Under the pieces are notes generated by a model. That model was not told the DNA's origin and searched no databases. It saw nothing but the letters and a program-made list of their open reading frames with translations. Made by a program: the position numbers and the translations under genes. This document shows, piece after piece, positions 5,860 to 64,000 of a stretch of DNA of 64,000 bases. Position 1 is the first letter of the stretch, and each line of letters starts with the position of its first letter. Source of the stretch: Thermodesulfobacteriota bacterium (GTDB taxonomy: Bacteria; Desulfobacterota_D; UBA1144; Nemesobacterales; Mycalebacteriaceae); contig CBDBJA010000004.1 of assembly GCA_965206175.1 (NCBI GenBank), positions 82,414 through 146,413 of the forward strand, in the 5' to 3' direction.

Positions 5860-6193
5860 ATGGCGTTGCGCATCAAATCGGCTAAGAAAAAACACAGGCA
5901 GAGCCTTAAAAAAAGACTGAGAAACAGATTTGTCAAATCCTCTTTGAGAACCATGACAAAAGGTTTCCTCGCCGCAGTTGAGTCAAAAGACTCTTCAACC
6001 GCAAGTTCCATCTTCCCGAATCTGGTTTCCGCTTTTGACAAGGCGGCTTCAAAAGGCGTTCTTCACAAAAAAAAACGCGTCAAAAAATGTGGCGAGAATG
6101 TCGCGCAAACTTCATATGCTTTCTTCCGAGCCAACCCCTCCGCCACCGACAACCCCTCCGCAAGAAAGCGCTACCGCTCCGCAAACAGATTGA
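5860..6193 (+). CDS. rpsT: 30S ribosomal protein S20, split by an apparent 1-nt insertion
   Basis: MALRIKSAKKKHRQSLKKRLRNRFVKSSLRT... Removing one A from the A9 run at 6067-6075 gives ...GVLHKKNASKNVARMSRKL..., which ends in a Pro/Thr-rich tail with a stop at 6193. Confidence 0.8.
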
Positions 6194-7148
6194 CGGTCAT
6201 TCTCACGAGCGTTTCATAACCGTTTGAACGCGATGTTTTAAGGGCTCTGTCCGTATCGGCGAAATTTTTCATAATACGCGCGGCATCGCTCCGCGCAAAA
6301 TTGCGGGACTGCTTCCACATAAAATGAGCCGCGCCGGGTTTGATTTTCAGTTCTTTTGCTATCAGTTTTTTCTGCTGTTCGGGGGAAATCCCCGGGGATT
6401 TTGACCTTACAGCCGCCGCTCTGAGGACATTTCGTATCCTTGAGGAAACGGCGGAAAGTATGAACAGCGGTTCAATCTGATTCTGCGCGGCAATCTCGCC
6501 GAGTATGGCAAGCGTTTCGGTTTTTTTCCTGTCCGCTATGGCGTTTGTCAATTCAAAAATGTCCCTTGATTTGCGGCGGTCAAACATGCCGGAGATGTCG
6601 TTTTGACTTATGACGGTTCCGGGACCGTGAGTTTCGGCGAGTTTGGCGAGTTCGCTTCTTATAACGCTCAGGTCTTCTCCGATAAGGTCGCAAAGGTAAG
6701 TTGAGGCGGCGTGGCGCATAACAATGCCCAGTTTGTCCGCCTCTTCAATCACTCTTTCATGAATTTTCCTTGAATCTTCCTCAACGCTTTTGACAAAAAT
6801 TCCTTCTCCGGATTTCAGGTCGGGTTTTGAAACATCCGCCGAAACAAGAACAAGGCGCGCATGAGACGCCGGTGAGAGGGCGTATTGTTTGACAAGTTCA
6901 AGCGATTTTTTGTCGACAGTTTCGGCGCGTTTGAGCACGACAACTTTTTTTGAGGAAAACATGGAAAGGTTGGAAGCATTGCTTATGACTTCCGCAATCG
7001 GCGTTTCATCGGCGTAAAAAACCGACACATCCGCCTGATTGCCGTCTCCGAGAAACTGTTTTGATATTTCCGCGACAAACCTGTCGGCGAGAAGCGTCTG
7101 CGCTCCTCTGACAAGACAGACGGGAGAGTTGACGGCTTCGGATTTCAA
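6171..7148 (-). CDS. holA: DNA polymerase III subunit delta
   Basis: N-terminal pattern VCLVRG...LLADRF...VSVFYADE...[17 protein letters not shown] fits HolA. The TTG start overlaps the ndk stop (TTGA). Confidence 0.7.
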
Positions 7149-24295: not shown

Positions 24296-25672
24296 GTGAT
24301 GTCCCGCAAGGTATCATATATTGTCGCCGTGTTTCTGTGCGCATGCTTTCTGTGCGCAACCTTCGTCACATCAGGAAACGCGGAGGAAGGATTTGAAAAA
24401 CAACCCAAAACTGTTGTTGTTGCAACCCTCAAGGGAACCATCAATCCTTTCACGGCGGATTTTGTCAAGACGGCAATAGAAAGCGCACAACGGCAAAAAG
24501 CCGGAGTGGTCGTCATTGTTATTGACACTCCCGGCGGACTGCTGAATTCAACCCAAGAGATAGTCAAAGACATTTTGAACTCTCCGGTGCCCGTAGTCGC
24601 TTATGTTTCCCCGTCCGGAGCGACCGCCGCCTCCGCCGGAACTTTCATAGTTCTTGCGTCCCACATTGCGGCAATGGCTCCCGGAACAAGCATAGGGGCG
24701 GCGCAGCCGGTTACCTCGGAAGGCAAAGCCAAAGAAGGCAAGGCGGGCAAAAAGATAGAAAATTTCGCCGCTTCCTACATAAAGAGCATCGCGGAAAAAA
24801 GAAACCGCAACGCAAAATGGGCGGTCAGCGCGGTCAGGGAAAGTTCATCGGTAACTTGGGAATACGCCGTCAAAAAGAACATAGTGGACCTTGCGGCGAA
24901 AGATATGAACTCCCTGCTTGAAAAAATTGACGGAACCGAGATACAAATCGGAAACGGAATCAGAAAACTGTCAACATCGGGGGCAAAGATTCTCACGCAC
25001 AAAATGTCAACCCGTCAGCGGGTCGGAAACATTCTCGGCTCGCCGGACATCGCATATCTTCTTCTGTCTCTGGGTTCCATAGGGATTTTAATGGAGATTT
25101 ACAATCCCGGAAGCATATTCCCGGGTGTTGTGGGTCTCATCGCTCTGATGCTCGCTTTTGCTTCCCTTCAGATTCTTCCGTTCAACTACGCCGGTCTCGG
25201 ACTCATAGCGGTCGGCATGGGGCTTATGGTCGCCGAAGTGTTCATGACGAGTTACGGGCTTCTGGCGCTTGGCGGAATCATATCGCTTCTTGCCGGAGGG
25301 GTTCTTCTTTTTGACCCCGAGGAAACCGGCGGATTGAGAGTGGGATATGAGGCTCTTGCCACGGTTGGCGCGACTTTCGGTCTGCTTTTTGCTTTTGTGG
25401 TTTTTTCCATTATGCGTTCCTCAAAAATTTCCTATCTGGGCGGAGAGGAAGCGTTTGCGGGCAGGGAAGGCAGAGTTGTTGACTGGGACGGTGACGGAGG
25501 TATAGTGTTTGTCAGCGGGGAATACTGGAAAGCCGAGAGCGATGACGCTCTTTCAAAAGGTTCTCCTGTTGTTCTTCTGGGAAAAGAGAGAGGTCTGAAA
25601 GTCAAGGTTAAGCGCCGTAACGGGGAAAGTTCCGAAACGGCGGTTGACGAAAAAAACAAGGAGAAAAAATGA
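24296..25672 (+). CDS. nfeD: NfeD-family membrane-bound ClpP-class serine protease
   Basis: IDTPGGLL...[28 protein letters not shown], a central multi-TM block and a C-terminal OB-like domain (GEYWKAES). It is paired with an SPFH gene, as is usual. Confidence 0.85.
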
Positions 25673-26486
25673 TTCCAATACCTTCAATTACAACTTTGCT
25701 GATAATAGTGGTTCTCTTCTGCTGCTGTCAGGATCGAAAATTCTCAAGGAATACGAAAGGGGCGTGGTTATGCGTCTTGGGCGTGTCATAGGCGTAAAAG
25801 GTCCGGGTTTTGTCTGGATAATCCCTTTTGTTGACAAGATGACACGGCTCAGTCTTCGCGTGATAGCGATGGATGTTCCGCCTCAGGATGTAATCACAAA
25901 AGACAATGTGTCTGTCAAGGTAAACGCCGTTTTGTATTTTAGGGTGATTAACCCGATAAACACGATTGTAAAAGTGGAGAACTACTATTACGCGACTTCC
26001 CAACTTGCCCAGACGACTTTAAGGAGTGTTCTCGGTCAGGTTGAACTGGACGGGCTTCTTGCTGAAAGGGAGGAGTTGAATCTGAAACTTCAGGAAGTTT
26101 TGGACCAGCAGACCGATGATTGGGGGATAAAGGTTACGCTTGTTGAGGTGAAGCATGTTGATTTGCCTCAGGAGATGCAGAGAGCGATGGCGAAGCAGGC
26201 GGAAGCCGAAAGGGAGAGAAGGGCGCGAATCATAAGCGCGGAAGGAGAGTTTCAGGCGTCTCAGAAAATTGCCGACGCATCCGATATTCTTTCAAGAAAT
26301 CCGGCATCGCTTCAGTTGAGGTTTTTACAGGCGTTGTCAGATCTTCCGTCCGAGAGAAATTCAACGATAATTGTTCCGCTTCCGCTTGAGTTGTTGAAGC
26401 CGTTTATGGAGAAGAAAGTTTTTGACGACAAGCCGCAGATTAAGCCCTCGGGGAATAGTGATCCGTTTAAGAGCTCGGGCGGGTAA
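25669..26486 (+). CDS. SPFH/band-7 (stomatin-like) protein, probable frameshift near the 5' end
   Basis: The body (frame of ORF 25644..26486) has [17 protein letters not shown]...[11 protein letters not shown]...EAERERRA. The expected N-terminal TM helix ([17 protein letters not shown]) is encoded from ATG 25669, behind AAGGAG, in a different frame. The frames switch around 25711-25722. Confidence 0.8.
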
Positions 26487-26536
26487 GAACAAAGATATAA
26501 CCGCCTTTTGAAATAAACTTGAAAGAGAGGTGTCGG

Positions 26537-27679
26537 ATGAGTAAAAACATCTTGGGATTAAAAGAATTGACGGAAGCGGTTTCAAAAGCCGCGGCAATTC
26601 GCCTGCGGTTGGAATTGGAACCTGTCGCCGGAAAGGGCGAGAAGATTTTCCCTCCAACCTACAAGGGAGGCACATACGCAATTGAGGATAGAGTTGACTC
26701 CAATGGGGAGATTGAAAAATGCGTCACCATAGACTCGGTTCAGTCTCAGGCAAACCGTTTTGAAGAGTGTTTACAAAAAGCGATTGATGAAGGCGCTATT
26801 ACCCTGCCAATAATTGAGATTGACCTTGAGTCATTGAAATCAAAAGATGGCGAGGGCAGAATCACGACATTGACCGCGCCTCATAGATGGGCGGACGCTT
26901 ATTTTATTTACAGTCAAGACGACAAAAAGAAAAAGTTTAGAGATACTGAAATCGGCATAGCATTGTCCGAAGCGTTGCCTAAAAATGCAACCGTCTTATT
27001 TCAATACTGCCCGACTTCACTGCTTTTTGGCGTTTGGGATTCTCATAAAGCAAAGGGGGCAACGGGAACAAAGTTTGAAAGGTGCCTGGCATCGGAAATC
27101 GTCGCATACGGAATAGAAGAAGGAACCCGCTTTGCGAGCAAGGGAGACCCTATGGTGAGCAGCAATGCGGACAAGTTCAAAGGTCAGGAAGCGTCTAAGT
27201 TGGGATTTGGCATGATTCCGCCTACAGACACTCACGGAGGAATTACCTCAAAGACAATCAGGCAGGTTTCTTTAATTTCTCTGACCGGATTGCGAAAACT
27301 GCGCTTTCCTCTCAACGGCAAATCCGACATGGAAACAGATAACGCCGCAAGGACTGTTTTGGCCGCCTTGGGTCTTTTTGCGCTTACCGATTTATTCCAT
27401 CGCGGTTACTCTCTGCGGTCAGGATGTTCCCTGCGTTCATCCGAAAAAGAATTGACTTTTGAAATTGTCAGCAACGGCGGAGAACGTTCTTTTACACTTG
27501 ACAAAGAATCCGCCACATCCTTATTCATGGATGCGGTTGAACAATCTAAAAAAGCAAAATTGCCGTGGGAAACAAAGCCAAAAACTTTCTATGCGACTGA
27601 AGAATTGAAAAAGTGGATTTTAGCAGCCCAGAAACAAGACAAGGAAGGCAAAAACGACAACAAAAAAGAAGGTGACTGA
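26537..27679 (+). CDS. csb1: type I-U/I-G CRISPR-associated Cas7u (Csb1, GSU0053-family-like)
   Basis: The motifs KIFPPTYKGGTYA and IDSVQSQANRFEE match what I remember as Csb1/Cas7u hallmarks. It is the first gene of a coupled four-gene operon next to a CRISPR array. Confidence 0.75.
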   Translation: MSKNILGLKELTEAVSKAAAIRLRLELEPVAGKGEKIFPPTYKGGTYAIEDRVDSNGEIEKCVTIDSVQSQANRFEECLQKAIDEGAITLPIIEIDLESLKSKDGEGRITTLTAPHRWADAYFIYSQDDKKKKFRDTEIGIALSEALPKNATVLFQYCPTSLLFGVWDSHKAKGATGTKFERCLASEIVAYGIEEGTRFASKGDPMVSSNADKFKGQEASKLGFGMIPPTDTHGGITSKTIRQVSLISLTGLRKLRFPLNGKSDMETDNAARTVLAALGLFALTDLFHRGYSLRSGCSLRSSEKELTFEIVSNGGERSFTLDKESATSLFMDAVEQSKKAKLPWETKPKTFYATEELKKWILAAQKQDKEGKNDNKKEGD

Positions 27680-29115
27680 TGCTCATCATTTCAGTCAACT
27701 ACCTTATGGGACGCGCCGTTGCGAGAGACTATTTCAGCAGTCCTTCAACAAGCGAATGGCCTCCCCATCCCTGCCGTCTTTTTTCGGCAATGGTTGCAAG
27801 CTGGGGAAATGCGGACGAAGATGAATCCGAAGCGGATGCCCTAAAATGGCTTGAAAAACAAAATCCTCCCGAAATCACCGCCTGTAAGGTTCAAACCGGA
27901 AAAGCAGTAACTCTTTGTTCAATAAGGTCGGATAAGATAGAAGATAAAAACGAAGAAGGGAGAGTAATATTACAACCCGCCACCGAACATCATTTCCCCC
28001 GTATCGCGCTTTCGGACCCTCAAGTTTTCTTCATCTGGAAAAACGGGGGAAAAGAATTTGACGGACACCGTCCCGCACTTGAAGCCATCGTGCGGAGAAT
28101 ACCTTATCTTGGAACTTCAATGTCTCCCGTAACCGTCTCACTGTGTGATTCTCCGCCCGAAGTTAAAAACCTGATTCACTATGTTCCAAACAAAAACGGC
28201 GATTTATCCCTGAGGGTCGCACACAAGGGGCGTTTTGACAACCTGTGTTCAATATACGAAAAGAGCGGAGGAAAAAGTTCCGATATTCCCGTTTCGCCTC
28301 AAGTTTCCTATACGGACAAAGAACCCGGGGAAACCGTTCCCGATGAAACTCACGACATAATTGTTCTGAAACTGTCTCCCGACAAGGATAAAGATCCGCA
28401 AAGCTGTCTCCCTTATTTACAACACTGTCATAAATCATCGGATGTTTTACACAAAGCGATGATTCAAAAAGCGGAAGAGACGGGAGTTTCCGCCGAAGCA
28501 AAGGAACTTATTTCGGGACACCCTTCCGGCTCGTCGGACAAAACTGAAAAACCGCACATCACGCGTATCCCTCTGGCAAATGTCGGATGGGAACATTCGG
28601 ACGGCAAGGTGTTCGGGTTTGCTTTGCTTTTGCCTCCAGGAACGGAAGCAAGAGTTGTTCGTGAAATCAACAAAGTTGCCGAAGGGCTGGAGTATTTGAC
28701 AGCCGGAGGTTTTGGCGTTTGGAATGTGGAAGTTGTTGACCCCGAAGTAAGTCAGATGTCTTTGAATCCATCGCGTTATTTGAAGTCTTCCAAACTATGG
28801 GCAACAATAACTCCGGTGCAGTTTGACACTCCGCCAAACCGTCCCAACAGCGCGCAAAGTTACAAGATTCTACACCGAAGTTTTGAAAGACAGGGATTGC
28901 CAAGTCCTGTTTTCGGCAATAGCAGACAGTTGCAACATTCTCCAATTCAAGGCGTCCCGCGAAGTCAGGATTTCAAGGTTTTACGAAGAGAAGACGACCG
29001 CAGACCTTGGACTCACCTTACAGTTGAGTTCAAAGAGTCGGTTAAAGGTCCCGTTATTGTCGGCGCGTTACGCTTTTTTGGTTTGGGTCTTATGATGCCC
29101 ATTGATGAAAACTGA
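27679..29115 (+). CDS. csb2: type I-U/I-G CRISPR-associated Cas5u-Cas6 fusion (Csb2, GSU0054-family-like)
   Basis: The N-terminus MLIISVNYLMGRAVA...EWPPHPCRLFSAMVA matches the Csb2 pattern (EWPPxPxRLF). A C-terminal RAMP glycine-rich loop is present (GALRFFGLGLMMP). The start overlaps the csb1 stop (ATGA-type coupling at 27679). Confidence 0.75.
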   Translation: MLIISVNYLMGRAVARDYFSSPSTSEWPPHPCRLFSAMVASWGNADEDESEADALKWLEKQNPPEITACKVQTGKAVTLCSIRSDKIEDKNEEGRVILQPATEHHFPRIALSDPQVFFIWKNGGKEFDGHRPALEAIVRRIPYLGTSMSPVTVSLCDSPPEVKNLIHYVPNKNGDLSLRVAHKGRFDNLCSIYEKSGGKSSDIPVSPQVSYTDKEPGETVPDETHDIIVLKLSPDKDKDPQSCLPYLQHCHKSSDVLHKAMIQKAEETGVSAEAKELISGHPSGSSDKTEKPHITRIPLANVGWEHSDGKVFGFALLLPPGTEARVVREINKVAEGLEYLTAGGFGVWNVEVVDPEVSQMSLNPSRYLKSSKLWATITPVQFDTPPNRPNSAQSYKILHRSFERQGLPSPVFGNSRQLQHSPIQGVPRSQDFKVLRREDDRRPWTHLTVEFKESVKGPVIVGALRFFGLGLMMPIDEN

Positions 29116-31856
29116 TGTCTGAAAGTTATTCATTTACAAATTTCTTTGAGGAACTGCACGGTTGCAAACCTTTTCCTTGGCAAGACCGGCTGGCAAATGA
29201 AATATCTGAAAAGCGAAATATGCCGGACATTCTGAATCTGCCAACGGCTTCGGGCAAAACCGCTTTGATTGACATTTGGCTGTGGTCTCTTTACAAAAAC
29301 ATTTCAAGCGAAAACAAACGGGATATTCCCATACGCCTTTTCTATGTGGTGAACCGCCGTCTCATTGCCGATGCCGCGCACAAAAGGGCGGAACATATCG
29401 CCGCAAAATTGAGAGAATCACGCAACGGAGTTTTAAGAAAAATGGCGGACGGCTTGCAAACTTTTTCCGGTAACGATTCTCCGCTGGAAACCGCAATTTT
29501 ACGCGGCGGTATGGCGCGGGAATCAAACTGGTGCAAATCTCCGGCGCAACCGATGGTTTGCAGCGGAACGGTTGATATGATTGGCTCGCGCCTTCTGTTT
29601 CGCGGCTATGGAATACCGCTCAGGCAGCGTTCCATTGATGCCGGACTGACGGGTTGCGATGCGATGGTGGTTCTTGATGAAGTTCACCTTTCGGAAGCGT
29701 TTGAAAGCACACTGAAAAACATCGCCAATCTACGCGGCGATGAAAGTGAAACAGAAAAATTGCGCGTGGTTCGCATGTCTGCGACAAACCGCAACGGCAA
29801 AGAGAAGGCGTTTGAACTGAACGAATCGGACTTCAAAAACAAAGATATTTTAAGGCGTCATGGAAACCCCAAATCCGTCCGGCTGGAACAGACAAAAAGT
29901 GGAAAGACTTCCGACCTCATTGATAAACTGGCGGAACAGGCGGAACTTGCTTTGAAAAGTTCCGAAATAAAAACCCCCGTTGTCGCGGTGGTTGTAAACA
30001 CGGTTGAAGTTGCGCGGGAAATTCACAATTTGCTAACAAACAAAAAAGACGGCACGGAAGCAGTTCTGCTGACGGGCAGATGCCGACCGTTTGAACGGGA
30101 AGAAATGATTGAGGAATACGGTCAACGCCTGTTCGCGCAGGAAAAACGGGACGGTGAAACGCCCTTGTTTGTTATCGCAACACAGTGCGTTGAAGTGGGG
30201 GCGGACTTTGATTTTGACGCAATGGTTTCGGAGATTGCGCCTCTGGATTCTCTGATTCAGAGATTCGGAAGGTTGAACCGCTTGGGACGGCGAAAAGAAG
30301 CGGAAGGGGTTGTTGTGGCTCCGAAAAGTTTTGGTGAGCGGAAAAAGCAAATTCCATTTTACGGCGATGCGCCGGAAAAGACATGGAAGCGGTTGAAAAG
30401 AATTGCAAAGAAAGACAAAGTGGATTTTTGCGTGTCCGCAATTAAAAAGGAAAATCTTCAAGATGACGATTGTATCGTTCCCCGCAAAAATGCTCCCGTG
30501 ATTGCGCCGGAGTATGTTGATATATGGTCTCGCACAAGTGTCGGGCAGTTTGCCGAATCGGATATTTCTTTGTTTCTTCACGGAGAGTCCGAACCGGCGG
30601 ATGTTCAAGTGGTGTGGCGGGGAGATATACCTGAGGACTTGGACGGTGAAGTTCCGCCGTCAGCACTGCAAGTTCTTTCGGGACTGCCTCCTCAAGCCGG
30701 AGAGTCGGTTTCTCTTCCGGTATGGAAATTCAGAAACTGGATTACGGGGGGAGGTAAAGACGAATCTCTCGCCGATGTTGAAGGAAGCGGCAAGGAAGCG
30801 AAAAGCGGACAGGGAACAAAAGCCGGAAAAATCATCCGTTGGAGAGGATATGAAAAAGATGAAAAAGACAGGGCAAAACTTGTTTCGCCTCAGGAGATAA
30901 AATCGGGCGATGTTGTGGTTCTGTCTTCCGCGCGGGGCGGATGCGATGAGTTTGGCTGGAATCCACAATACGAAAAAAGTGTAAAAGACATTGCAAAGAA
31001 AAGGAGGAAAGCGCGTAAAAATTATCGGGAATACGCTCTCCGTGTTCATCCCAATTGCTGCGACTGCGACAAGTCATGGAAAGATGTAAAAGAGTGGATT
31101 GGAGACGAAGGTCTTCCCGTTTCACGGAAAATTGCCGAAAAACTGTTTGGAATAAAAAATCCTGAAAATTGCAAAGTTGTTCTCTACGGCAAAACATGGG
31201 AAAAAGGTTTTGCTCTTTTGATTCGGGAGAACAAGGAACAAAAACGGAGCAGGGGCGGCAAGTTTGTGTCATTGAAAAAACACTGTGAAGGCGTTGCGGC
31301 AATGGCGGAAGACTTTGCAAAGAAAGCGGGGCTTTCAAAGGAATTTGCCGCCGTTATGAAAACCGCCGGAGAGTGGCATGATGCGGGCAAGGCGGAAAGC
31401 CGGTGGCAGGAATACATAAGAGGCGGGGAAAATTCTGATGAACCCGTTGCAAAATCTCCGCTCCCCGTTGACCCGAAAGCATGGGGAAAGTCCGGTCTGT
31501 CCAAAGGTGAGCGTCATGAGTATTGGTCTTGCTTGCTTGCGGAGAAAAAATTGCCGGAAGAAAACCGCGATTTGATTTTACATCTTATTGCGTCTCATCA
31601 CGGCAACGCCCGTCCTTTTCCAATGCCGCCCGAGGACGGGGGAGAACTGGCAAGAGCATCCGACAAGCAACAAATTGAATTCAACGGCGCGAGCGCAAAA
31701 GTGGCGGACAGCCTTGGTCTTTGGAAACTGGACAGCGGGTTTGCTTCAAGGTTTGCGGAATTAAACAAACAATACGGCTATTGGGGGCTGGCTTATCTGG
31801 AAGCAATTTTCCGGCTTGCGGATTATGAACAGTCGCGCCGTGAGGAAACGGAATGA
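29115..31856 (+). CDS. cas3: CRISPR-associated Cas3 helicase-nuclease with C-terminal HD domain (Cas3u-like)
   Basis: It has SF2 helicase motif I LPTASGKT, motif II LDEVH and the later QRFGRLNR. The C-terminal HD nuclease motifs are EWHDAGK and IASHHG. The start overlaps the csb2 stop. Confidence 0.85.
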   Translation: MSESYSFTNFFEELHGCKPFPWQDRLANEISEKRNMPDILNLPTASGKTALIDIWLWSLYKNISSENKRDIPIRLFYVVNRRLIADAAHKRAEHIAAKLRESRNGVLRKMADGLQTFSGNDSPLETAILRGGMARESNWCKSPAQPMVCSGTVDMIGSRLLFRGYGIPLRQRSIDAGLTGCDAMVVLDEVHLSEAFESTLKNIANLRGDESETEKLRVVRMSATNRNGKEKAFELNESDFKNKDILRRHGNPKSVRLEQTKSGKTSDLIDKLAEQAELALKSSEIKTPVVAVVVNTVEVAREIHNLLTNKKDGTEAVLLTGRCRPFEREEMIEEYGQRLFAQEKRDGETPLFVIATQCVEVGADFDFDAMVSEIAPLDSLIQRFGRLNRLGRRKEAEGVVVAPKSFGERKKQIPFYGDAPEKTWKRLKRIAKKDKVDFCVSAIKKENLQDDDCIVPRKNAPVIAPEYVDIWSRTSVGQFAESDISLFLHGESEPADVQVVWRGDIPEDLDGEVPPSALQVLSGLPPQAGESVSLPVWKFRNWITGGGKDESLADVEGSGKEAKSGQGTKAGKIIRWRGYEKDEKDRAKLVSPQEIKSGDVVVLSSARGGCDEFGWNPQYEKSVKDIAKKRRKARKNYREYALRVHPNCCDCDKSWKDVKEWIGDEGLPVSRKIAEKLFGIKNPENCKVVLYGKTWEKGFALLIRENKEQKRSRGGKFVSLKKHCEGVAAMAEDFAKKAGLSKEFAAVMKTAGEWHDAGKAESRWQEYIRGGENSDEPVAKSPLPVDPKAWGKSGLSKGERHEYWSCLLAEKKLPEENRDLILHLIASHHGNARPFPMPPEDGGELARASDKQQIEFNGASAKVADSLGLWKLDSGFASRFAELNKQYGYWGLAYLEAIFRLADYEQSRREETE

Positions 31857-32755
31857 CAAACGGAACGGAAACAAAATTATTTCCTTTGCCTTATTTTCAC
31901 TATGGCAACTTGCAGGCCTTTATGGCTTTGTGCGGACTGATGAATCTTTTGCATGAAAACAAAAAAGAATGGAAACCTGCCTGTCAATGGAAAGAAACCA
32001 ATGATACAAGGGGTTTTTGTCCCACCATCAGATTGTCCGTTTCTACCACGGAAAAAGAATTTGCAAGCATTGTCTATAAAAATGTGAAAAAAGATTTAAG
32101 AAAAAAATCAGAACATTGGATAGATAATCTTAAAACCGATAACGAAAAAATTATACAGCCATTGGCTTTTTGCTTCCCCGAAGAACCAAAAAAATCACCA
32201 TTCTGGATGGCGGATGTTAAACCAGCGAAAACAGCAAAAGCATCTATGGAAAACTTAACCGAAGACCATATTGGAGATTCTCTTTTCAAGAAGTGGGATT
32301 ATGGTGAAAGGTCAACAAAATTCAAAAGAGCAGGAGATAAAAACAAATATATTCCCGTAGGTAAATTAGGCTATGACCCTATTTACTCTAACCGCACACA
32401 ATCCAAACTTGGCTATAGGCCTAAAGATGATAAGTCTGTTCCAGTTGAAGGTGGGGCAAACGCTCTTGCTGGTTGTGGGTGGGATATGTTTCCGTGTATC
32501 CCTTTAGTAAAGGGAAATGTCAGCGCACCTTGTTATTTTAGAGAGAAAAACGCGAATATGGTTCGCTATCCTCTTTGGAATGTGTGGCTTGATTTTGAAG
32601 AAATAAAGTCATTGTTATGGTCAAACTGGCATGAGTTTTCTAATCCTCAATTAGAGGCAATAGGAATTACGGATATAATTTCTGTGAAAATAGAAAAAAA
32701 AGAAAAGGGGGGTTGGCGTCCTTTGCAAGGACAAATTTTCAAAAAAATTGTTTGA
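31853..32755 (+). CDS. hypothetical CRISPR-associated protein in the Cas8u (Csx17/Csb3) position, 300 aa
   Basis: The ATG overlaps the cas3 stop (ATGA, 31853-31856). The N-terminus LFPLPYFHYGNLQAFMALCGLMNLL loosely recalls the Csx17/Cas8u N-terminal motif. The gene is visibly AT-rich, and its stop is only 34 nt before the first CRISPR repeat. The family assignment is unverified. Confidence 0.5.
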   Translation: MTNGTETKLFPLPYFHYGNLQAFMALCGLMNLLHENKKEWKPACQWKETNDTRGFCPTIRLSVSTTEKEFASIVYKNVKKDLRKKSEHWIDNLKTDNEKIIQPLAFCFPEEPKKSPFWMADVKPAKTAKASMENLTEDHIGDSLFKKWDYGERSTKFKRAGDKNKYIPVGKLGYDPIYSNRTQSKLGYRPKDDKSVPVEGGANALAGCGWDMFPCIPLVKGNVSAPCYFREKNANMVRYPLWNVWLDFEEIKSLLWSNWHEFSNPQLEAIGITDIISVKIEKKEKGGWRPLQGQIFKKIV

Positions 32756-32789
32756 ATTGTTAGTGAACTCAACAGGTTGAAAACGATTT

Positions 32790-34145
32790 GTTTTGCCACA
32801 CTTGGTTTTGTGGTCTAATTGAAACTCCCGCAGTCGCGGTTGCCGCGATTTTCGGGTTTTGCCACACTTGGTTTTGTGGTCTAATTGAAACGCCGGCGAC
32901 GCGAACCAAACGACACCTCTGGTTTTGCCACACTTGGTTTTGTGGTCTAATTGAAACAATGGAAGCGCCGCGAGCGGATCTTCCGAAGTTTTGCCACACT
33001 TGGTTTTGTGGTCTAATTGAAACGGCACAGGGCGCACCACCGTGCACGATGCAGTTTTGCCACACTTGGTTTTGTGGTCTAATTGAAACGCAACGCCGGT
33101 CGGAGCCGCGCCGTATGTGGTTTTGCCACACTTGGTTTTGTGGTCTAATTGAAACCCGCGAATTGCAAACCGCATGGAGCCAAACGTTTTGCCACACTTG
33201 GTTTTGTGGTCTAATTGAAACGGCACGGTTGAGAATGGCGTAAACGCGCGAGTTTTGCCACACTTGGTTTTGTGGTCTAATTGAAACAGCGTCGAGGCGG
33301 CGTCTGTTGATTTTGTCGTTTTGCCACACTTGGTTTTGTGGTCTAATTGAAACATGGCAGAGAACGGGCTGTTCTCAAATTGTGTTTTGCCACACTTGGT
33401 TTTGTGGTCTAATTGAAACTTGAGTTGTTCGGACGCCCCATTCGCTACCGTTTTGCCACACTTGGTTTTGTGGTCTAATTGAAACGCGGACAAAAAGGAA
33501 AAGACACGAGCGAAAGTTTTGCCACACTTGGTTTTGTGGTCTAATTGAAACCGAATCCGGTGACGGAAAGAATCGGAGCGGGTTTTGCCACACTTGGTTT
33601 TGTGGTCTAATTGAAACTTGAAGGAACGCTTGCGGTTAAACCGCAAGGTTTTGCCACACTTGGTTTTGTGGTCTAATTGAAACGGGGCAAGCGTAACGGC
33701 AAGTGAGGGGGGAGTTTTGCCACACTTGGTTTTGTGGTCTAATTGAAACTGGATAAAGGCATCACAGACGCCGCGGACGGTTTTGCCACACTTGGTTTTG
33801 TGGTCTAATTGAAACTGGGTTGCTCTCACCTCTTACATCAACGATGTTTTGCCACACTTGGTTTTGTGGTCTAATTGAAACAAGAACTTGATCCGTGATA
33901 TCACTTGGAGTGTTTTGCCACACTTGGTTTTGTGGTCTAATTGAAACCTTATTGCAAGCCCTGCGAACCGTTTTTTAGTTTTGCCACACTTGGTTTTGTG
34001 GTCTAATTGAAACACTATCCAGGTCTTCCCCGCGCCGCTTGCGGTTTTGCCACACTTGGTTTTGTGGTCTAATTGAAACAACCGCAGACGCAATTTCAAC
34101 CGGCACTTCGTTTTGCCACACTTGGTTTTGTGGTCTAATTGAGAA
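32790..34145 (+). CRISPR. CRISPR array: 21 x 36-nt repeats, 20 x 30-nt spacers
   Basis: The repeat GTTTTGCCACACTTGGTTTTGTGGTCTAATTGAAAC contains an internal CCACA/TGTGG hairpin and a 3' ATTGAAAC handle. I hand-indexed an exact 66-nt period from 32790 to 34110. The last repeat (34110-34145) degenerates to ...ATTGAGAA. Orientation is co-directional with the cas genes. Confidence 0.98.
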
Positions 34146-34246: not shown

Positions 34247-34412
34247 GGCAAGGTATCAGCAACTGCCATTGCAATTGCAACTTTAGCCGACCCATCTCCG
34301 TTGAAACATGTATGAATCATACGGAATAAGCGTTCGGCAGCCGGAAACGGCACTTGCAAAACACCAAACACTATTTATATTTGAACCAATCCTATGCGTT
34401 TGCGAGACACCT

Positions 34413-34889
34413 ATGATTTTCAGACTGGAAGAGATTGCGGATGAAGGGCTGTTCTTTGAGATTTCCAAAAACGGGAAATGGCTCACAAACATAAGGGAGA
34501 TAGCCGAAGAAACAGGAGAAACAAAACTGCTTTCTCCCGTTTCCTTCAGCGCGGGCATTCAAAAAATGAGCGGATATCTGAGCGTTTCAGGCAAACTGTC
34601 GTTTGAACTTTCCTCGCCATGCGTGCGCTGCCTGAAAACGGCGCGGAGCAAAATCGGCGGTCAAATCGGATTCTTTATTTCACTTTCGAGAAAAGAGAAT
34701 AGAATAGACATCTCCGATGATATGAGACAGCAGGTCGCAATGGCAATGCCTGAAAGGATTATGTGCTCGGATGAATGCAAAGGACTTTGCGCAATGTGCG
34801 GAAAAGACTTGAATGAAGGCGTCTGTTCGTGTAAAACGGAGGAAACAGACAACAGGTTTCAAGCGCTGAAACAACCCGATCCGTCTTAG
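34413..34889 (+). CDS. yceD: YceD/DUF177 family protein
   Basis: MIFRLEEIADEG... with the C-terminal Cys cluster CSDECKGLCAMCGKDLNEGVCSC. It sits directly upstream of rpmF, as is typical. Confidence 0.8.
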   Translation: MIFRLEEIADEGLFFEISKNGKWLTNIREIAEETGETKLLSPVSFSAGIQKMSGYLSVSGKLSFELSSPCVRCLKTARSKIGGQIGFFISLSRKENRIDISDDMRQQVAMAMPERIMCSDECKGLCAMCGKDLNEGVCSCKTEETDNRFQALKQPDPS

Positions 34890-34916
34890 GACGGAGCGCG
34901 GCAAAAGGAGAAAAAC

Positions 34917-35138
34917 ATGGCGGTTCCAAAAAGAAAAACTTCAACTTCCAAATCCCGAAAAAGAAGAACCCACTACAAGGCGGTAGTCCCGCCATCTTCC
35001 GTTTGCCCGGAATGCAACGAGAGGATGTATCCGCACAGGGCTTGCCCGCACTGCGGCTACTACAAGGGAAGAGCTTTTATGAAAGAAGAAGAAACGGAAG
35101 AGATTGAAGAAGAAGAGTCGGAGGCGGCCGCCGAATAG
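34917..35138 (+). CDS. rpmF: 50S ribosomal protein L32 (with acidic C-terminal extension)
   Basis: MAVPKRKTSTSKSRKRRTHYK...CPECNERMYPHRACPHCGYYKG. Confidence 0.95.
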   Translation: MAVPKRKTSTSKSRKRRTHYKAVVPPSSVCPECNERMYPHRACPHCGYYKGRAFMKEEETEEIEEEESEAAAE

Positions 35139-35177
35139 ATGCTGCTTTCGCCTGTTGAGACTTGATGAAAAAGTAAG

Positions 35178-36095
35178 ATGACATCTTTTGTTTTCCCCGG
35201 ACAAGGTTCGCAGTATGTCGGAATGGGAAAAGATCTCCGCGACAACTTTCCCGAATCCAGACTTGTGTTTGAACAGGCAAGCGACGCCATAGGCGAAGAT
35301 ATGAGCGCCCTGTGCTTTGACTCCGACGAGGAAACCCTGAGTTTGACCGCAAACGCGCAGCCCGCCATTCTGACGGTCAGCATAGCGGTTCTGCATGCGT
35401 TCCAAAAAGAAAAAAACCGGAAGCCGGACTTTGTCGCCGGACACAGCCTCGGAGAGTATTCCGCGCTTGTCGCGGCGGGAGCGATTGAGTTTTCCGATGC
35501 GGTGAGAATTGTGAGAAAAAGAGGCGAACTGATGCAGGAAGCGGTTCCGCGGGGAGAAGGGGCGATGGCGGCAATCATGGGTTTGACAAAAAATGAAGTT
35601 GAAAATGTTTGCAAACAATGTTCGGATAACGGACGGCATGTTTCGCCCGCAAACTACAATTCGCCTGAGCAGACAGTCATATCGGGACACACGGACGCGG
35701 TGGAAAAAGCAACACATCTCGCCCTTGAAAGCGGAGCCCGCAGGGCGGTGCCGCTGAAAGTGAGCGCCCCTTTCCACTGCTCTCTTATGAGTCCGGCGGC
35801 TGAAAAACTTGCGGAAACACTGGAACAGATTAAAGTGTCGCCCATTGTGGTTCCGGTTGTTACCAACCTTGAGGCGACTGAAAACACGGAACCGGAAAGA
35901 GTGAAAAAATTGCTGCTTGAACAGATAACAAACCCCGTCAGGTGGTCGGAATCGGTTGAATACATGAACGGCAGAGGGGTCGACAGATTCATTGAGATGG
36001 GTCCCGGAAAAGCGCTTTGCGGACTTGTGAAAAGAACCGTGAAAAATGTGGAAACTGTTAATCTTGAAATGGCGGAGCATTTGCATAAGGTTTAG
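35178..36095 (+). CDS. fabD: malonyl-CoA:ACP transacylase
   Basis: FVFPGQGSQYVGMG and the active site GHSLGEYSALVAAG. Confidence 0.95.
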   Translation: MTSFVFPGQGSQYVGMGKDLRDNFPESRLVFEQASDAIGEDMSALCFDSDEETLSLTANAQPAILTVSIAVLHAFQKEKNRKPDFVAGHSLGEYSALVAAGAIEFSDAVRIVRKRGELMQEAVPRGEGAMAAIMGLTKNEVENVCKQCSDNGRHVSPANYNSPEQTVISGHTDAVEKATHLALESGARRAVPLKVSAPFHCSLMSPAAEKLAETLEQIKVSPIVVPVVTNLEATENTEPERVKKLLLEQITNPVRWSESVEYMNGRGVDRFIEMGPGKALCGLVKRTVKNVETVNLEMAEHLHKV

Positions 36096-36099
36096 AGAA

Positions 36100-36855
36100 A
36101 TGAACTTCGGGACTGAATTCAAAGGGAAAACCGCGCTTGTTACGGGAGCATCACGGGGGATAGGAAAGCAGACGGCGATAGACCTTGCGGCGGCGGGCTG
36201 TCATGTGATTGTGAACTACGCATCAAATTCCGGTGAGGCGGAGGAGACCCTTGAGATTATCAAACAAAACGGAGGAAGCGGCGAAACCGTCCGCTTTGAT
36301 GTTTCAGACTACAAAGCGGTGGGGAAGACCGTCAAGCCGTTTATTGAAAAGAAGGGCGGGATTCACATACTCGTAAACAACGCGGGAATCACAAAAGACA
36401 AACTGCTTGTCAGAATGACGGAGCGGGACTGGAACGATGTTCAGGACACAAACCTGAGTGGAGTCTTCAACTGCACGAAAGCGGTCATAAGAAACATGCT
36501 GAACGCCAGATACGGAAGAATCATCAACATCACCTCGGTGGTGGGCGAAATGGGAAACCCCGGACAGATAAACTATTCTTCCTCAAAAGCGGGTATAATA
36601 GGGTTTACAAAATCGGCGGCGAAAGAGTTCGCTTCACGCGGGATAACAGTAAATGCGGTAAGTCCCGGATTTGTGGAAACGGACATAACGGCGCCCATTC
36701 CCGAAGAAATGAAACGCGCATACCTTGAGTCAATACCGCTCGGCAGATACGGCACGGTGAAGGATGTGTCGGGCGCGGTAACTTTTCTGGCATCGGACGC
36801 GGCTTCATACATCACCGGAGAAGTGATGAAAGTGAACGGCGGACTTTATATTTAA
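36100..36855 (+). CDS. fabG: 3-oxoacyl-ACP reductase
   Basis: KTALVTGASRGIGK, NNAGI and the YSSSKAG catalytic motif; the ATG is at 36100. Confidence 0.95.
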   Translation: MNFGTEFKGKTALVTGASRGIGKQTAIDLAAAGCHVIVNYASNSGEAEETLEIIKQNGGSGETVRFDVSDYKAVGKTVKPFIEKKGGIHILVNNAGITKDKLLVRMTERDWNDVQDTNLSGVFNCTKAVIRNMLNARYGRIINITSVVGEMGNPGQINYSSSKAGIIGFTKSAAKEFASRGITVNAVSPGFVETDITAPIPEEMKRAYLESIPLGRYGTVKDVSGAVTFLASDAASYITGEVMKVNGGLYI

Positions 36856-36894
36856 TTTTGGAAGGAAAAACAAACAAGACAAGGAGGAAAACAA

Positions 36895-37155
36895 ATGTCT
36901 CAGGAAAAAGAAACGGAAATAATCGGCAAAGTCAAAGGGATGATAGCCGGTCAGTTCGGCAAATCAGTCGAAGAGATTGAACCGGAGCTGTCGTTCATTG
37001 ACGACCTCGGCGCGGACTCGCTTGATCTGGTGGAGCTTGTAATGTCAATAGAGGACGAGTTCGGAATTGAAATCCTTGACGAGGATGTTGAAAAAATCAA
37101 ATCCGTTCAGGACGCGGTTGATTTCATAAAGGAGAAGCAAGGAGATGGCGCGTAG
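36895..37155 (+). CDS. acpP: acyl carrier protein
   Basis: [21 protein letters not shown] (phosphopantetheine Ser), with AAGGAGG 8 nt upstream. Confidence 0.95.
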
Positions 37156-38377
37156 GGTCGTCATAACCGGGCTTGGCCTTGTAACCCCCCTCGGTATAGG
37201 ACACAAACAAACTTGGGAAGCCGTCTGCGCGGGCAGAAGCGGGGTCGGCGCCATAACCAGATTTGACGCCTCAAACCACAAAACGCAGATAGCGGGTGAA
37301 GTCAAAAACTTCCGTCCGGCGGATTTTATGACCGAACGGGAAGTCCGCAGGGACGACATCTTTATCCATTACGCCATCGCGTCAACAAAACTCGCGCTTG
37401 AGGATTCGGGGCTTGAAATAAGCGATGAAATGTCTCATAGAGTCGGCGTCGTAATCGCGTCCGGAATCGGCGGAACGACAACATACTGCGACATGGTGCG
37501 GGTTCTTGACGACAAAGGTCCGGGCAGAGTTTCGCCGTTTTTCATCCCCAATGTGATAACGAACATGGCGGCGGGTTATGTGTCAATAAAATTCAACGCG
37601 AAAGGCCCCAACTGCAGCACGACAACCGCCTGCGCGGCAAGCGGTCATTCGCTTTCCCTTGCCGCGATGCTCATAAAAAACGGAGACGCGGACGCGATGA
37701 TAGCGGGGGGAAGCGAAGCTCCTCTTGTTTCGCTTACGGTGGCGGGTTTCAATGTAATGAAAGCGCTCTCAACGCGCAACGACGACCCCGAAACGGCGTC
37801 AAGACCCTTTGAAAGGGACAGGGACGGGTTTGTTCTCGCCGAAGGGGCGGGAATGGTAATTCTGGAAGAGTTTGAATCCGCCAAAGCTCGCGGCGCGAAC
37901 ATATACGCCGAGGTTCTCGGACACGGAATGAGCGGGGACGCCCACCACATAACCGCCCCGTCTCTTGACGGACCCGTCAGATGCATGAAGGCGGCTCTTC
38001 ACAATTCCGGCGTCAACAGCGAAGATGTTGACTACATAAACGCTCACGGCACTTCCACAAAACTCAACGATTCAAACGAAACCGCAGCGATAAAAGATGT
38101 TTTCGGAAACAGGGCTTACGACATTCCCGTAAGTTCCACAAAATCAATGACAGGACACATGCTCGGAGCGACGGGAGCGGTTGAAGCGTCTTTGTGCGCT
38201 CTGGCGGTCAAGCACTCCGTAATACCGCCGACCATAAACCTTTTCAACAAAGACCCCGAGTGCGACCTTGACTATGTGCCGAATGAGGCGCGGGAAGCGA
38301 AATTGAAAATCGCCATCACAAACTCATACGGATTCGGCGGCACAAACTCGGTAATTGTGCTTGGGAGGGTTGATTAG
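37145..38377 (+). CDS. fabF: 3-oxoacyl-ACP synthase II
   Basis: [33 protein letters not shown] and NSYGFGGTN. Confidence 0.95.
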
Positions 38378-61871: not shown

Positions 61872-62792
61872 ATGAGGAAAAGATTACTGATAATTACCCT
61901 GTTTGTTTTCTTTGCTTTTGCGCCTTTTGTGAATGCTCAGAATAGGTTGCTTGACTATGGATTTATGAAAACAGCCACAGTTGCGGATATTGAGAGAGAA
62001 ATTCAAAATGGCGCGGATGTGAATGCAAGGAATGAACTCGGCTTGACGGCTCTGATGTGGGCGGCAAGCAACAACTCTAATCCTGAAGTTATCACGGCTC
62101 TTGTCAAAAATGGCGCAGATGTCAATGCAAGGGCTGAACTCGGCTTGACGGCTCTGATGGCTGCGGCAGTCAACAACTCTAATCCTGAAGTTATCACGGC
62201 TCTTGTCAAAAACGGCGCAGATGTCAATGCAAGGACTGAAGACGGCTGGACAACTCTGATGTATGCGGCAGGCAACAATTCTAATCTTGAAGTTATCACT
62301 TCTCTTGTCAAAAACGGCGCAGATGTCAATGCAAGAAATGAAGACGGCTGGACGGCTCTGATGTTGACGGCAGGCAACAACTCTAATCCTGAAATTATCA
62401 CGGCTCTTGTCAAAAACGGCGCAGATGTGAATACAAGGGTTGAAAAGGGCTTGACGGCTCTGATGGCTGCGGCAACTCTTAATTCTAATCCTGAAGTTAT
62501 CACGGCTCTTGTCAAAAACGGCGCAGATGTGAATGCAAGGACTGAAGACGGCTGGACGGCTCTGATGGCTGCGGCAGGCAACAACTCTAATCCTAAAATT
62601 ATCCTTGCCTTGCTTGAACACGGAGCAAATCCACGCCTTGCCGACAGGGATGGAAAGAATGCATTTGATTATATTAAGGATAATAAAGAGTTAAAGAACT
62701 CAAAGGCATATTGGAAACTGAATGAGTTAAGGTATGCTCCCGCTCCTTCCAAGCCCAAAAGTTTTATGGAAAAAATCAAAGACTTGTTTTAA
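61872..62792 (+). CDS. secreted ankyrin-repeat protein
   Basis: Signal peptide MRKRLLIITLFVFFAFAPFVNA|Q, then six near-identical 34-aa units NAR.E.G.TALM.AA.NNSNPEVITALVKNGADV. The C-terminal module is GKNAFDYIKDNKELKNSKAYWKLNEL. Confidence 0.9.
   Translation: MRKRLLIITLFVFFAFAPFVNAQNRLLDYGFMKTATVADIEREIQNGADVNARNELGLTALMWAASNNSNPEVITALVKNGADVNARAELGLTALMAAAVNNSNPEVITALVKNGADVNARTEDGWTTLMYAAGNNSNLEVITSLVKNGADVNARNEDGWTALMLTAGNNSNPEIITALVKNGADVNTRVEKGLTALMAAATLNSNPEVITALVKNGADVNARTEDGWTALMAAAGNNSNPKIILALLEHGANPRLADRDGKNAFDYIKDNKELKNSKAYWKLNELRYAPAPSKPKSFMEKIKDLF
62022..62633 (+). repeat. intragenic tandem repeat, six units of 102 bp (ankyrin units)
   Basis: Long identical DNA stretches (aactctaatcctgaagttatcacggctcttgtcaaaaa[c/t]ggcgcagatgt[c/g]aatgcaagg) recur at 102-bp spacing. 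Confidence 0.85.
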
Positions 62793-63219: not shown

Positions 63220-64000
63220 ATGAGAAAAACATTACTTTTAACTCCCTTGCTCGCTTTCCTTGCGCTTGCTCCTTTTGCAAATGCGCAAAACGCATTGATT
63301 GACTACAACTTTATGAAAACAGCCACAGTTGCTGACATTGAGAGAGAAATCAAAAACGGCGCGGATGTGAACGCAAGAGACGAAGACGGCTTGACCGGTT
63401 TGACCGCTCTTATGTATGGGGCAAACAACAACCCTAATCCCGAAGTTATCACGGCTCTTGTCAAAAACGGCGCAGATGTAAACGCAAGGGACGAAACAAG
63501 TTTTACCGCTCTGATGTATGCGGCGGAAAACAACTTTAATCCTGAAGTCATAATGATTCTTGTCAAAAACGGCGCAGAGGTGAATGCAAAAAATGAAAAC
63601 GGTGGAACGCCCCTGATGGTTGCGGCAAGCAACTCCAACCCTGAAGTTATCACCGCTCTTGTCAAAAACGGCGCGGATGTGAACACAAGGAATAAATTCG
63701 GCTTAACGGCTCTGATGTTTGCGGCAAGCAACAACTCTAATCCTGAAGTTGTCTTAGCTCTTATCAAAAACGGCGCGGAGATGAATGCAAAAAATGAAAA
63801 CGGCGGAACCGCTCTGATGTTTGCGGCGGACAACAACTCTAATCCTGAAGTCATATTTGCCTTGCTTGAAAACGGAGCAAACCCACGCCTTACTGACAGG
63901 GCTGGAAAGAATGCGTTTGACTATATGAAAAGAAACAGACGGTTAAAGGAATCAAAGTCATATCAGAAAGTGAAAACATTACTGTATAACCCCGATACTC
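63220..64000 (+). CDS. secreted ankyrin-repeat protein, paralog of 61872..62792, 3'-truncated by window edge
   Basis: It is absent from the ORF track because no stop is reached. ATG 63220 follows GGAAGGAAG. The signal peptide is MRKTLLLTPLLAFLALAPFANA|Q, followed by ANK units and GKNAFDYMKRNRRLKESKSY. The frame is open to nt 64000. Confidence 0.85.
   Translation, partial: MRKTLLLTPLLAFLALAPFANAQNALIDYNFMKTATVADIEREIKNGADVNARDEDGLTGLTALMYGANNNPNPEVITALVKNGADVNARDETSFTALMYAAENNFNPEVIMILVKNGAEVNAKNENGGTPLMVAASNSNPEVITALVKNGADVNTRNKFGLTALMFAASNNSNPEVVLALIKNGAEMNAKNENGGTALMFAADNNSNPEVIFALLENGANPRLTDRAGKNAFDYMKRNRRLKESKSYQKVKTLLYNPDT

Follow-up and report, generated by a model that had tools for sequence, protein, structure and literature searches.

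A 300-residue gene beside a type I-G CRISPR array is probably an intact, divergent member of a short Cas8g-like family

A type I-G CRISPR locus in a Thermodesulfobacteriota bacterium raises the question of whether its last cas gene is whole or broken. The locus lies within a stretch of 64,000 nucleotides (contig CBDBJA010000004.1, positions 82,414 to 146,413 of the forward strand), hereafter the window, whose own coordinates are used throughout. The gene, here called X, runs on the + strand from an ATG at 31853 to a TGA at 32753-32755, encodes 300 amino acids (aa) and is followed, after 34 nt, by repeat 1 of a CRISPR array at 32790. A sequence-only reading of the window had drawn attention to this short product and narrow spacing, both of which are borne out by the coordinates of the open reading frame (ORF), and had correctly given Csx17 as about twice as long: chain M of PDB entry 8b2x, 'Type I-G CRISPR Cascade large subunit CSX17', has 720 aa. 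That reading left two options, namely a genuinely small large-subunit or Cas11-like component of a minimal Cascade, or the scar of a deletion running into the array. In our assessment X is likely to be intact, to stand fourth in the operon that is standard for one type I-G variant and to encode a short Cas8g-like large subunit, in a lineage that has lost the adaptation genes.

The start codon of X overlaps the stop codon of cas3g, which ends at 31856, as ATGA, and a Shine-Dalgarno-like GAGGA motif is found 8-12 nt upstream of the X ATG. Orthologous loci, L001 and L002, were found in two related genomes, a comparison that the sequence-only reading had proposed. They encode the orthologues P0002 (293 aa) and P0003 (called at 266 aa; by tblastn it extends further, to a few codons from the cas3 stop), each 51% identical to X. 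Because this identity is kept in two other assemblies and because X belongs to a large protein family, its sequence identifies the ORF as a real gene and no chance ORF.

Family membership was assessed with two profile models, the NCBIfam model NF049934, 'type I-G CRISPR-associated protein, Cas3-extension family' (adjac_Cas3_IG; 299 positions, curated cut-off 65 bits), and the PADLOC model PDLC01514, 'Cas8g, CAS-I-U effector_LS' (287 positions). Makarova-style profiles share the PADLOC label, 'Cas8g, I-U large subunit'. X matched NF049934 at E 8.6e-16 with 58.4 bits, residues 126-291 aligning to profile positions 145-295 in hmmscan, and PDLC01514 at E 2.5e-24. A Pfam scan of X returned no domain. 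Typical members of the family score 130-233 bits against NF049934, over positions 1-298 of 299. When the clade of X was aligned to 40 such members with hhalign, the match had a probability of 98.2% (E 4.6e-14) and placed X residues 1-273 on template positions 2-301.

The extent of the family became apparent from successive searches. A word-indexed search of 5.8 billion protein clusters returned only the protein itself and the two relatives at 51% identity. A profile of X and these two orthologues, run against 1.84 billion representatives, recovered 84 clusters, nearly all of 290-390 aa; all 81 members that were aligned match both models, with best E values of 3.6e-83 (NF049934) and 2.7e-91 (PDLC01514). 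At E <= 1e-5, a search with this 81-sequence alignment yielded at least 1600 clusters, and one of these bears the NCBI Cas3-extension family name. The short family has a median length of 324 aa (205 sequences, 176 of them within 300-349 aa), and X resembles it both in its 300 aa and in its place directly after cas3g. X is about 20-24% identical to typical members and shares their motifs in altered form (GNLQAFMALCGLM in X versus DNLLAFLALLGLL, GANALAG versus GANRLAA, and YPLWNVW versus WPIWR), but lacks the near-invariant FRWDP and the N-terminal His of the family. No further relatives of the window clade were detected among GTDB representatives (clade profile) or JGI metagenomes (repeat and clade profile); the clade is rare, comprising the window and two other assemblies. 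Taken at the level of sequence, X is an intact, divergent member of an already catalogued short Cas8g-like family of ~320 aa.

A deletion could also leave a short gene next to an array. In that case a cas8u/csx17 gene would have been cut down to its 5' half, X, by the removal of its 3' half, the adaptation genes and the greater part of the leader, and the final ~35 codons of X would derive from that leader. The 300 aa of X compared with the 720 aa of Csx17 would fit such an event, as would the mere 34 nt between stop codon and repeat 1 and the absence from the window of cas4-cas1 and cas2, which follow X in 30 of 57 family loci. The AT-rich and homopolymer-rich tail that the sequence-only reading had singled out would fit as well: gaaaatagaaaaaaaagaaaagggggg and caaattttcaaaaaaattg are present, and the final 100 nt of X have 33% GC. 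However, AT-richness is a property of the whole gene (37% GC, GC3 0.33, against 45-49% in the other three cas genes) and not a peculiarity of the tail, and a GC deficit is found in both orthologues too. Homology was also expected to stop abruptly before the C-terminal ~35 aa, and it does not: the hhalign alignment extends to residue 273, and the NF049934 alignment to residue 291, equal to profile position 295 of 299. Both orthologues moreover keep the C-terminal segment GI..V.I...K.G.R..G, with stop codons within 1-2 residues. A length of ~320 aa is normal for the short family, whose gene order recurs in 69 of 69 loci, and X shows no match to the Csx17 model, although a recent Csx17 truncation would retain one. 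A deletion scar is therefore scarcely credible as an explanation of X; what stands of it is the loss of the adaptation genes, not a lost 3' half of cas8u fused to leader sequence.

The base composition of X was compared with that of its relatives. The X gene lies ~8-11 GC points below its neighbours in the window; its orthologues have 41% GC against 47-48% in the operon neighbours (L001, 6543-7424) and 44% against 50-51% (L002, 5292-6134). The GC of typical short-family members differs from that of their own cas3 by 0-3 points only.

The position of X within its operon is equally typical. A GTDB scan with one genome per species gave 209 confirmed short-family loci, the best 80 of which were surveyed. 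cas3g stands directly upstream of the X homologue in all 69 loci with enough upstream sequence, and these 69 include csb2 in 67 and cas7g in 65 cases. Among the 57 fully flanked loci, a cas4-cas1 fusion occurs in 30 and cas2 in 25, typically directly after X and followed by the array, which was found within 8 kb in 28; five loci have an array without cas1, as in the window. The full layout of the short family is cas7g-csb2-cas3g-X-cas4/cas1-cas2-CRISPR. The four-gene block cas7-csb2-cas3-X is also present in metagenome-assembled chromosomes and in plasmids of Thermus, Azotobacter and Streptomyces. In a Rhodothermus plasmid the sequence examined stops at the record origin just past cas3u, before the position of the fourth gene, and the Methylomagnum block is rearranged and includes a split Cas3'' and an X homologue of 430 aa. 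A tblastn search of plasmids with Csb2, seeking canonical Csx17 loci, matched 18 records, and the six that were inspected all carry the short-X variant.

Several observations on the wider family stand beside this survey. Neither an array nor cas4-cas1 lies within 8 kb in 22 of the 57 fully flanked loci, many of them in chromosomes of Vicinamibacterales metagenome-assembled genomes, and stand-alone effector modules seem common in the short type I-G variant. An ORF of ~60 aa abuts or overlaps the start of cas7g in L004 (4117-4308), L005 (4072-4269) and 8 further Vicinamibacterales loci; the version in L004 is conserved in eight other loci (37-49% identity), of which seven bear the label Vicinamibacterales and one the label Acidimicrobiales. 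This ORF has no counterpart next to cas7g in the window. In the plasmid records NZ_CP010420.1, NZ_AP024272.1 and NC_017273.1 (loci L007, L008 and L091), the gene of ~320-336 aa after cas3u is labelled 'hypothetical protein', so that under the older annotation these loci appear without a large subunit. From such labels in RefSeq and PLSDB plasmid records, the short family was evidently named only recently.

The adaptation module itself is missing from the window, where no PADLOC match to Cas1, Cas2 or Cas4 was obtained among 51 further ORFs. It is also absent beside X in L002, where a solo repeat and yceD come next after X; the L001 contig ends inside the first repeat, and the sequence downstream of that repeat is unseen. 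The distance from X to the first repeat is 34 nt in the window, 61 nt in L001 and ~97 nt in L002, and the leader usual in short-family loci is longer (about 270 nt in L012). Judged from these layouts, cas4-cas1 and cas2 are lost in the window lineage, along with most of the usual leader, and this loss would have left X undamaged and only 34 nt away from the array. For the maintenance of 20 identical repeats next to no local adaptation genes, a Cas1-Cas2 pair elsewhere in the genome is the simplest answer.

The link between the short family and the canonical large subunit was examined by profile comparison. A diverse family profile (A2), searched against 177,635 PDB sequences, found 8b2x_M as its best match at E 1.3e-5. 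The alignment consists of two collinear islands, profile positions 3-45 on Csx17 residues 7-48, with the motif LxG...LAAYLxALGxLR, and profile positions 216-263 on residues 284-332, with a W-P-L-W motif. An independent Csx17 model, TIGR04113 (718 positions), matched several family members weakly at positions 1-39 and 297-335. The faint resemblance of the X N-terminus to Cas8u reported by the sequence-only reading is thus real at the level of the family, in island 1 and at TIGR04113 positions 1-39. A profile of the three clade sequences had no match among the PDB sequences, and a protein search with a Csx17 fragment, aimed at full-length Csx17 proteins, returned no candidate. Two Csx17 fragments run against the family with phmmer gave many weak matches, which were not counted since the fragments had been chosen from the family alignment and the test is circular.

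In Csx17 the N-terminal domain is alpha+beta and the C-terminal one helical and Cas11-like, and the size of the large subunit varies considerably among type I-G variants, Csx17 (Cas8g1) being the largest of three (PMC9638904). Since the two islands are collinear, the short family would correspond to roughly the first half of Csx17, with nothing to match the helical second half, a remote homology for which the signal is weak. Csx17/Cas8g1 proper was rejected as an identity for X on account of its 300 aa, the lack of a TIGR04113 match and the lack of a helical C-terminal domain in the predicted structure. This AlphaFold2 (AF2) model, built from the 81-sequence alignment, has a pLDDT of 83.6 and a pTM of 0.87 and replaced an earlier model from 3 sequences that was unusable (pLDDT 50.8). 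Its fold is mixed alpha/beta: a beta-alpha-beta-beta-alpha unit at the N-terminus leads into a helical middle part, and strands make up the C-terminus.

The confident AF2 model bears directly on whether X could serve a minimal Cascade as a Cas11-like small subunit, for a mixed alpha/beta fold with no helical bundle excludes a Cas11-like bundle. Cas11 proteins usually have about half of 300 aa, and X has about twice that usual size. For a 'large' subunit X is nevertheless small, and a separate cas11 gene is missing from type I-G (PMC9638904); both points would suit a small-subunit role. Against this, the similarity to Csx17 falls in its first half (7-48 and 284-332), while the Cas11-like domain is C-terminal (PMC9638904). 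We regard a Cas11-like X as very improbable. The small component of the Cascade foreseen from sequence alone thus retains its large-subunit half, through the short Cas8g-labelled family, the place after cas3 and the collinear Csx17 similarity, and loses its Cas11-like half.

The constant association with cas3g allows another role, in which X would be an accessory or extension module of Cas3g, controlling its nuclease or its loading, and the protospacer-adjacent motif (PAM) would be read by Cas7g and Csb2 as in the Cas8-less type I-F2. The NCBI name 'Cas3-extension / adjac_Cas3_IG' points in this direction, and so do the invariable adjoining and overlap of the X gene with cas3g, the weak similarity to Csx17 and the lack of a structural match to any Cas8. 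A Cas8-independent recruitment of Cas3 exists in type I-F2 (PMC12956352). Yet adjacency to cas3 fits a Cas8g role equally well, because the gene after cas3 in canonical type I-G encodes the large subunit that tethers Cas3 (PMC9638904). Two independent models moreover put the similarity at collinear Csx17 positions, and the four-gene operons hold no other candidate for a large subunit. Computation cannot separate an accessory role from that of a Cascade subunit; the accessory role is the main rival of the large-subunit reading and appears unlikely.

Some family proteins have a bearing on the 'Cas3-extension' name, as their starts match Cas3 or adjoin a Cas3'' gene. P0086 (487 aa) and P0033 (387 aa) are short-family database proteins whose start matches the C-terminus of Cas3g, and they alone support the name; in P0086, ~90 residues of the Cas3 C-terminus precede an X-like domain, which is a point in favour of an accessory module. 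The 430-aa X homologue of the Methylomagnum plasmid (L009, 12733-14025) lies beside a separate Cas3'' HD gene. All three are possible fusions or gene-call artefacts, and a true Cas3-X fusion was found in none of 85 loci.

Several results weigh against X being a short Cas8g-like large subunit in an active locus. The score of X stays below the 65-bit cut-off of NF049934, so that strict membership by the NCBI rule is not reached, and the hmmscan alignment is limited to residues 126-291. The family's link to Csx17 is weak, consisting of two short islands at E 1.3e-5; X itself has no match to TIGR04113 at E <= 1, and a narrower profile of typical members (A4) did not match Csx17 in the PDB. Foldseek of the X model against the PDB, a comparison that the sequence-only reading had proposed, found nothing significant (best 7sba_I, E 0.3), nor was 8b2x among the 50 matches listed, and structural confirmation of a Cas8 relationship thus failed. 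By their neutral 'Cas3-extension' name the NCBI curators remain uncommitted to a large-subunit role, and literature searches found no experimental paper on the short family. Three leader-proximal spacers searched against IMG/VR gave no protospacer, the whole array searched against phage and plasmid collections gave no spacer match, and no PAM was derived from either, so that any activity of the locus is putative.

With these points taken into account, we infer for X a large-subunit role with Cas3 tethering and PAM reading, and for the array read-through transcription. As the gene after cas3g is of the Cas8g type in both the canonical and the short variants, X would be the large-subunit equivalent of this operon. 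Translational coupling at the ATGA overlap would match its synthesis to that of Cas3g, and the protein would bind the Cas7g-Csb2-crRNA backbone near the 5' handle. As an integral subunit, X would hold Cas3g on the complex and share in PAM-dependent DNA recognition; in Thioalkalivibrio type I-G, Cas3 joins Cascade only when Cas8g is present (PMC9638904). The Cas6-like domain of Csb2 would cut the crRNAs of the adjacent array, leaving an 8-nt AUUGAAAC 5' handle, and the array would be transcribed by read-through from the cas operon. The resulting complex would have no Cas11-like belly.

The array occupies positions 32790-34145 on the + strand and contains 21 copies of the 36-nt repeat GTTTTGCCACACTTGGTTTTGTGGTCTAATTGAAAC, which recur every 66 nt without deviation, and between them 20 spacers, each 30 nt long. 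All copies are identical except the terminal one, which has 2 mismatches; because this degenerate repeat lies at the far end, the leader side is the X side. When folded, the repeat forms a hairpin of 6 bp between a 5-nt tail and a 3' tail that ends in AUUGAAAC. This tail-hairpin-tail layout is shared by the biochemically characterised repeat of Thioalkalivibrio type I-G, which yields the 8-nt 5' handle AUUGAAGC (PMC9638904). The repeat end ATTGAAAC is identical to that handle at 7 of 8 positions, processing being a prediction from sequence. In the 34-nt gap between X and the array (32756-32789, + strand; residual leader), a simple consensus scan predicted neither a sigma-70-like promoter nor a terminator, which fits read-through, and the array is probably transcribed in this way from the cas operon. 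Spacer GC content declines along the array, from 60-73% in the five leader-proximal spacers to 40-47% in several distal ones, the window as a whole having 49% GC.

Upstream of X, profile matches make csb1, csb2 and cas3g unambiguous type I-G effector genes, with Pfam and PADLOC in agreement. The backbone subunit gene cas7g, or csb1 (26519-27679, + strand, 386 aa), matches TIGR02570 with 93.6 bits (cut-off 38) and PF09617 at E 2.5e-51. It is followed by the type I-G signature gene csb2 (27679-29115, + strand, 478 aa), a Cas5-Cas6 fusion that matches TIGR02165 with 234 bits (cut-off 45) over its full length (residues 1-475 on profile positions 1-492) and the PADLOC Cas56g model at E 1e-94. The third gene, cas3g (29115-31856, + strand, 913 aa), encodes a helicase with a C-terminal HD nuclease, matches TIGR02621 over its full length with 751.7 bits (cut-off 400) and shows Walker A (SGKT), DEVH and HD motifs in its translation. 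The type I-G effector set of Csb2, Cas7g and Cas3g with its C-terminal HD domain is complete, all above the model cut-offs.

The cas block is flanked by nfeD and a band-7 gene upstream (24296-26486), the latter ending 33 nt before cas7g, and by yceD-rpmF-fabD-fabG-acpP-fabF downstream (34308-38377). The nfeD and band-7 labels were taken from Pfam in the context of L001, and the downstream labels were assigned by similarity to Pfam-labelled genes of L002. L001 and L002 carry the order cas7g-csb2-cas3g-X at the same chromosomal site as the window: the flank shared with the window is the upstream one in L001 (band-7) and the downstream one in L002 (yceD-rpmF-fabD-fabG-acpP-fabF), at 60-89% protein identity. 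The shared flanks of the three loci indicate, as far as synteny can tell, that the cas block sits at a fixed chromosomal site and has been inherited vertically, and that it is no mobile island.

Between the three genomes, housekeeping proteins are 73-88% identical and the cas proteins 51-64%, with X the most diverged. These figures bear on a further alternative, in which the locus would be a remnant without activity and X would owe its conservation merely to the short time available for decay. Consistent with a remnant are the absence of adaptation genes from the 64-kb window, the lack of spacer matches, the family loci without array and cas1 within 8 kb (22 of 57) and the reduction of the L002 array to a single degenerate repeat. 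All four genes, however, are intact in three lineages that have diverged to this degree, which requires long-term purifying selection; 20 of the 21 repeats in the window are identical, and Cas3g keeps its catalytic motifs. We therefore take an inactive remnant to be distinctly improbable. In L002 the single degenerate repeat (GTTTTACCACACTTGGATTTGTGGTCTCATTCC) lies between X and yceD (6135-6363); the csb2, cas3g and X frames are intact, cas7g is cut by the contig end only, and there is no local spacer.

Characterised type I systems provide further points of comparison. Csx17 (8b2x_M, TIGR04113; Shangguan et al. 2022, PMC9638904) is, like X, encoded directly after cas3g, and both are expected to serve as the Cas3-tethering, DNA-recognising subunit. 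The two differ in size and architecture, as the 720-aa Csx17 ends in a Cas11-like C-terminal domain that X lacks entirely, and in operon order, which is cas3-csx17-cas7-csb2 in the canonical arrangement (Mycobacterium locus, PMC10333696) and cas7-csb2-cas3-X here. In the type I-G system of Bifidobacterium animalis, the 'third' Cascade protein is not Csx17 but Csb3, regarded as a Cas8 equivalent. Csb3 co-purifies with Csb1, Csb2 and crRNA (bioRxiv 10.1101/2022.08.19.504415; PMC9335239), and productive target engagement in Bifidobacterium type I-G also needs Cas3 (PMC9335239). The Csb3 and X families were compared by gene order only; csb3 stands before cas3 (csb1-csb2-csb3, then cas3) and X after it, which argues against Csb3 belonging to the X family without excluding their identity. 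Type I-F and I-F2 show that type I complexes can work with no minor filament of the Cas11 type: type I-F has no separate Cas11 (PMC9638904), and type I-F2 has neither Cas8 nor Cas11 (PMC12956352). The likeness is architectural only, the proteins being unrelated and the subtype a different one.

Other features of the window were recorded in passing. Among the 51 ORFs outside 26519-34145, PADLOC models were matched for PDC-M72A (2 ORFs, E 2e-42), MzaA (E 8e-25), PDC-S48 (E 4e-12) and PrimPol (E 2.5e-8), all of which may reflect generic domains. Tandem 102-nt (34-codon) repeats lie within ORFs at the right end of the window (62005-62603 and 63406-63851), and two window ORFs match the PADLOC 'Ankyrin' model at E 3e-14; the right-end ORFs probably encode ankyrin-repeat proteins.

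The sequence-only reading had allowed that a full-length match to a known Cas family of ~300 aa with a conserved C-terminus would make X ordinary. Such a match is what we found, and X is thus an ordinary short large-subunit-type gene; 'miniature Cas8u' was essentially right as a description, but the family is already catalogued. The value of this result lies mostly in annotation. Falling below the NCBI cut-off and having no Pfam domain, X would be called hypothetical by annotation pipelines, and with X uncalled the locus could seem to lack a large subunit or to be damaged, although its effector module, that of a common type I-G variant, is in fact complete. X is in this respect useful for annotation and unsurprising to a specialist.

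A bolder interpretation, which we consider unlikely, is that the window clade represents an adaptation-less derivative of type I-G, fixed in the chromosome between nfeD-band7 and yceD-rpmF-fab of three diverged genomes and inherited vertically, whose sole 'large subunit' is the very divergent, AT-rich short Cas8g-like protein, and that the short family may work unlike Csx17 or form a minimal Cascade-Cas3. L002, with all four effector genes intact beside an array reduced to one repeat, would fit this view. If so, the short family would act as a Cas3-bound module instead of a belly subunit of Cascade, or would have a role independent of a local array; alternatively, the four proteins, ~2080 aa in total, would make up a naturally minimal Cascade-Cas3. 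The short Cas8g-like family is present in hundreds of species, and how PAM recognition and the holding of Cas3 would be accomplished without the Cas11-like half is a question for the family as a whole and not specific to the window.

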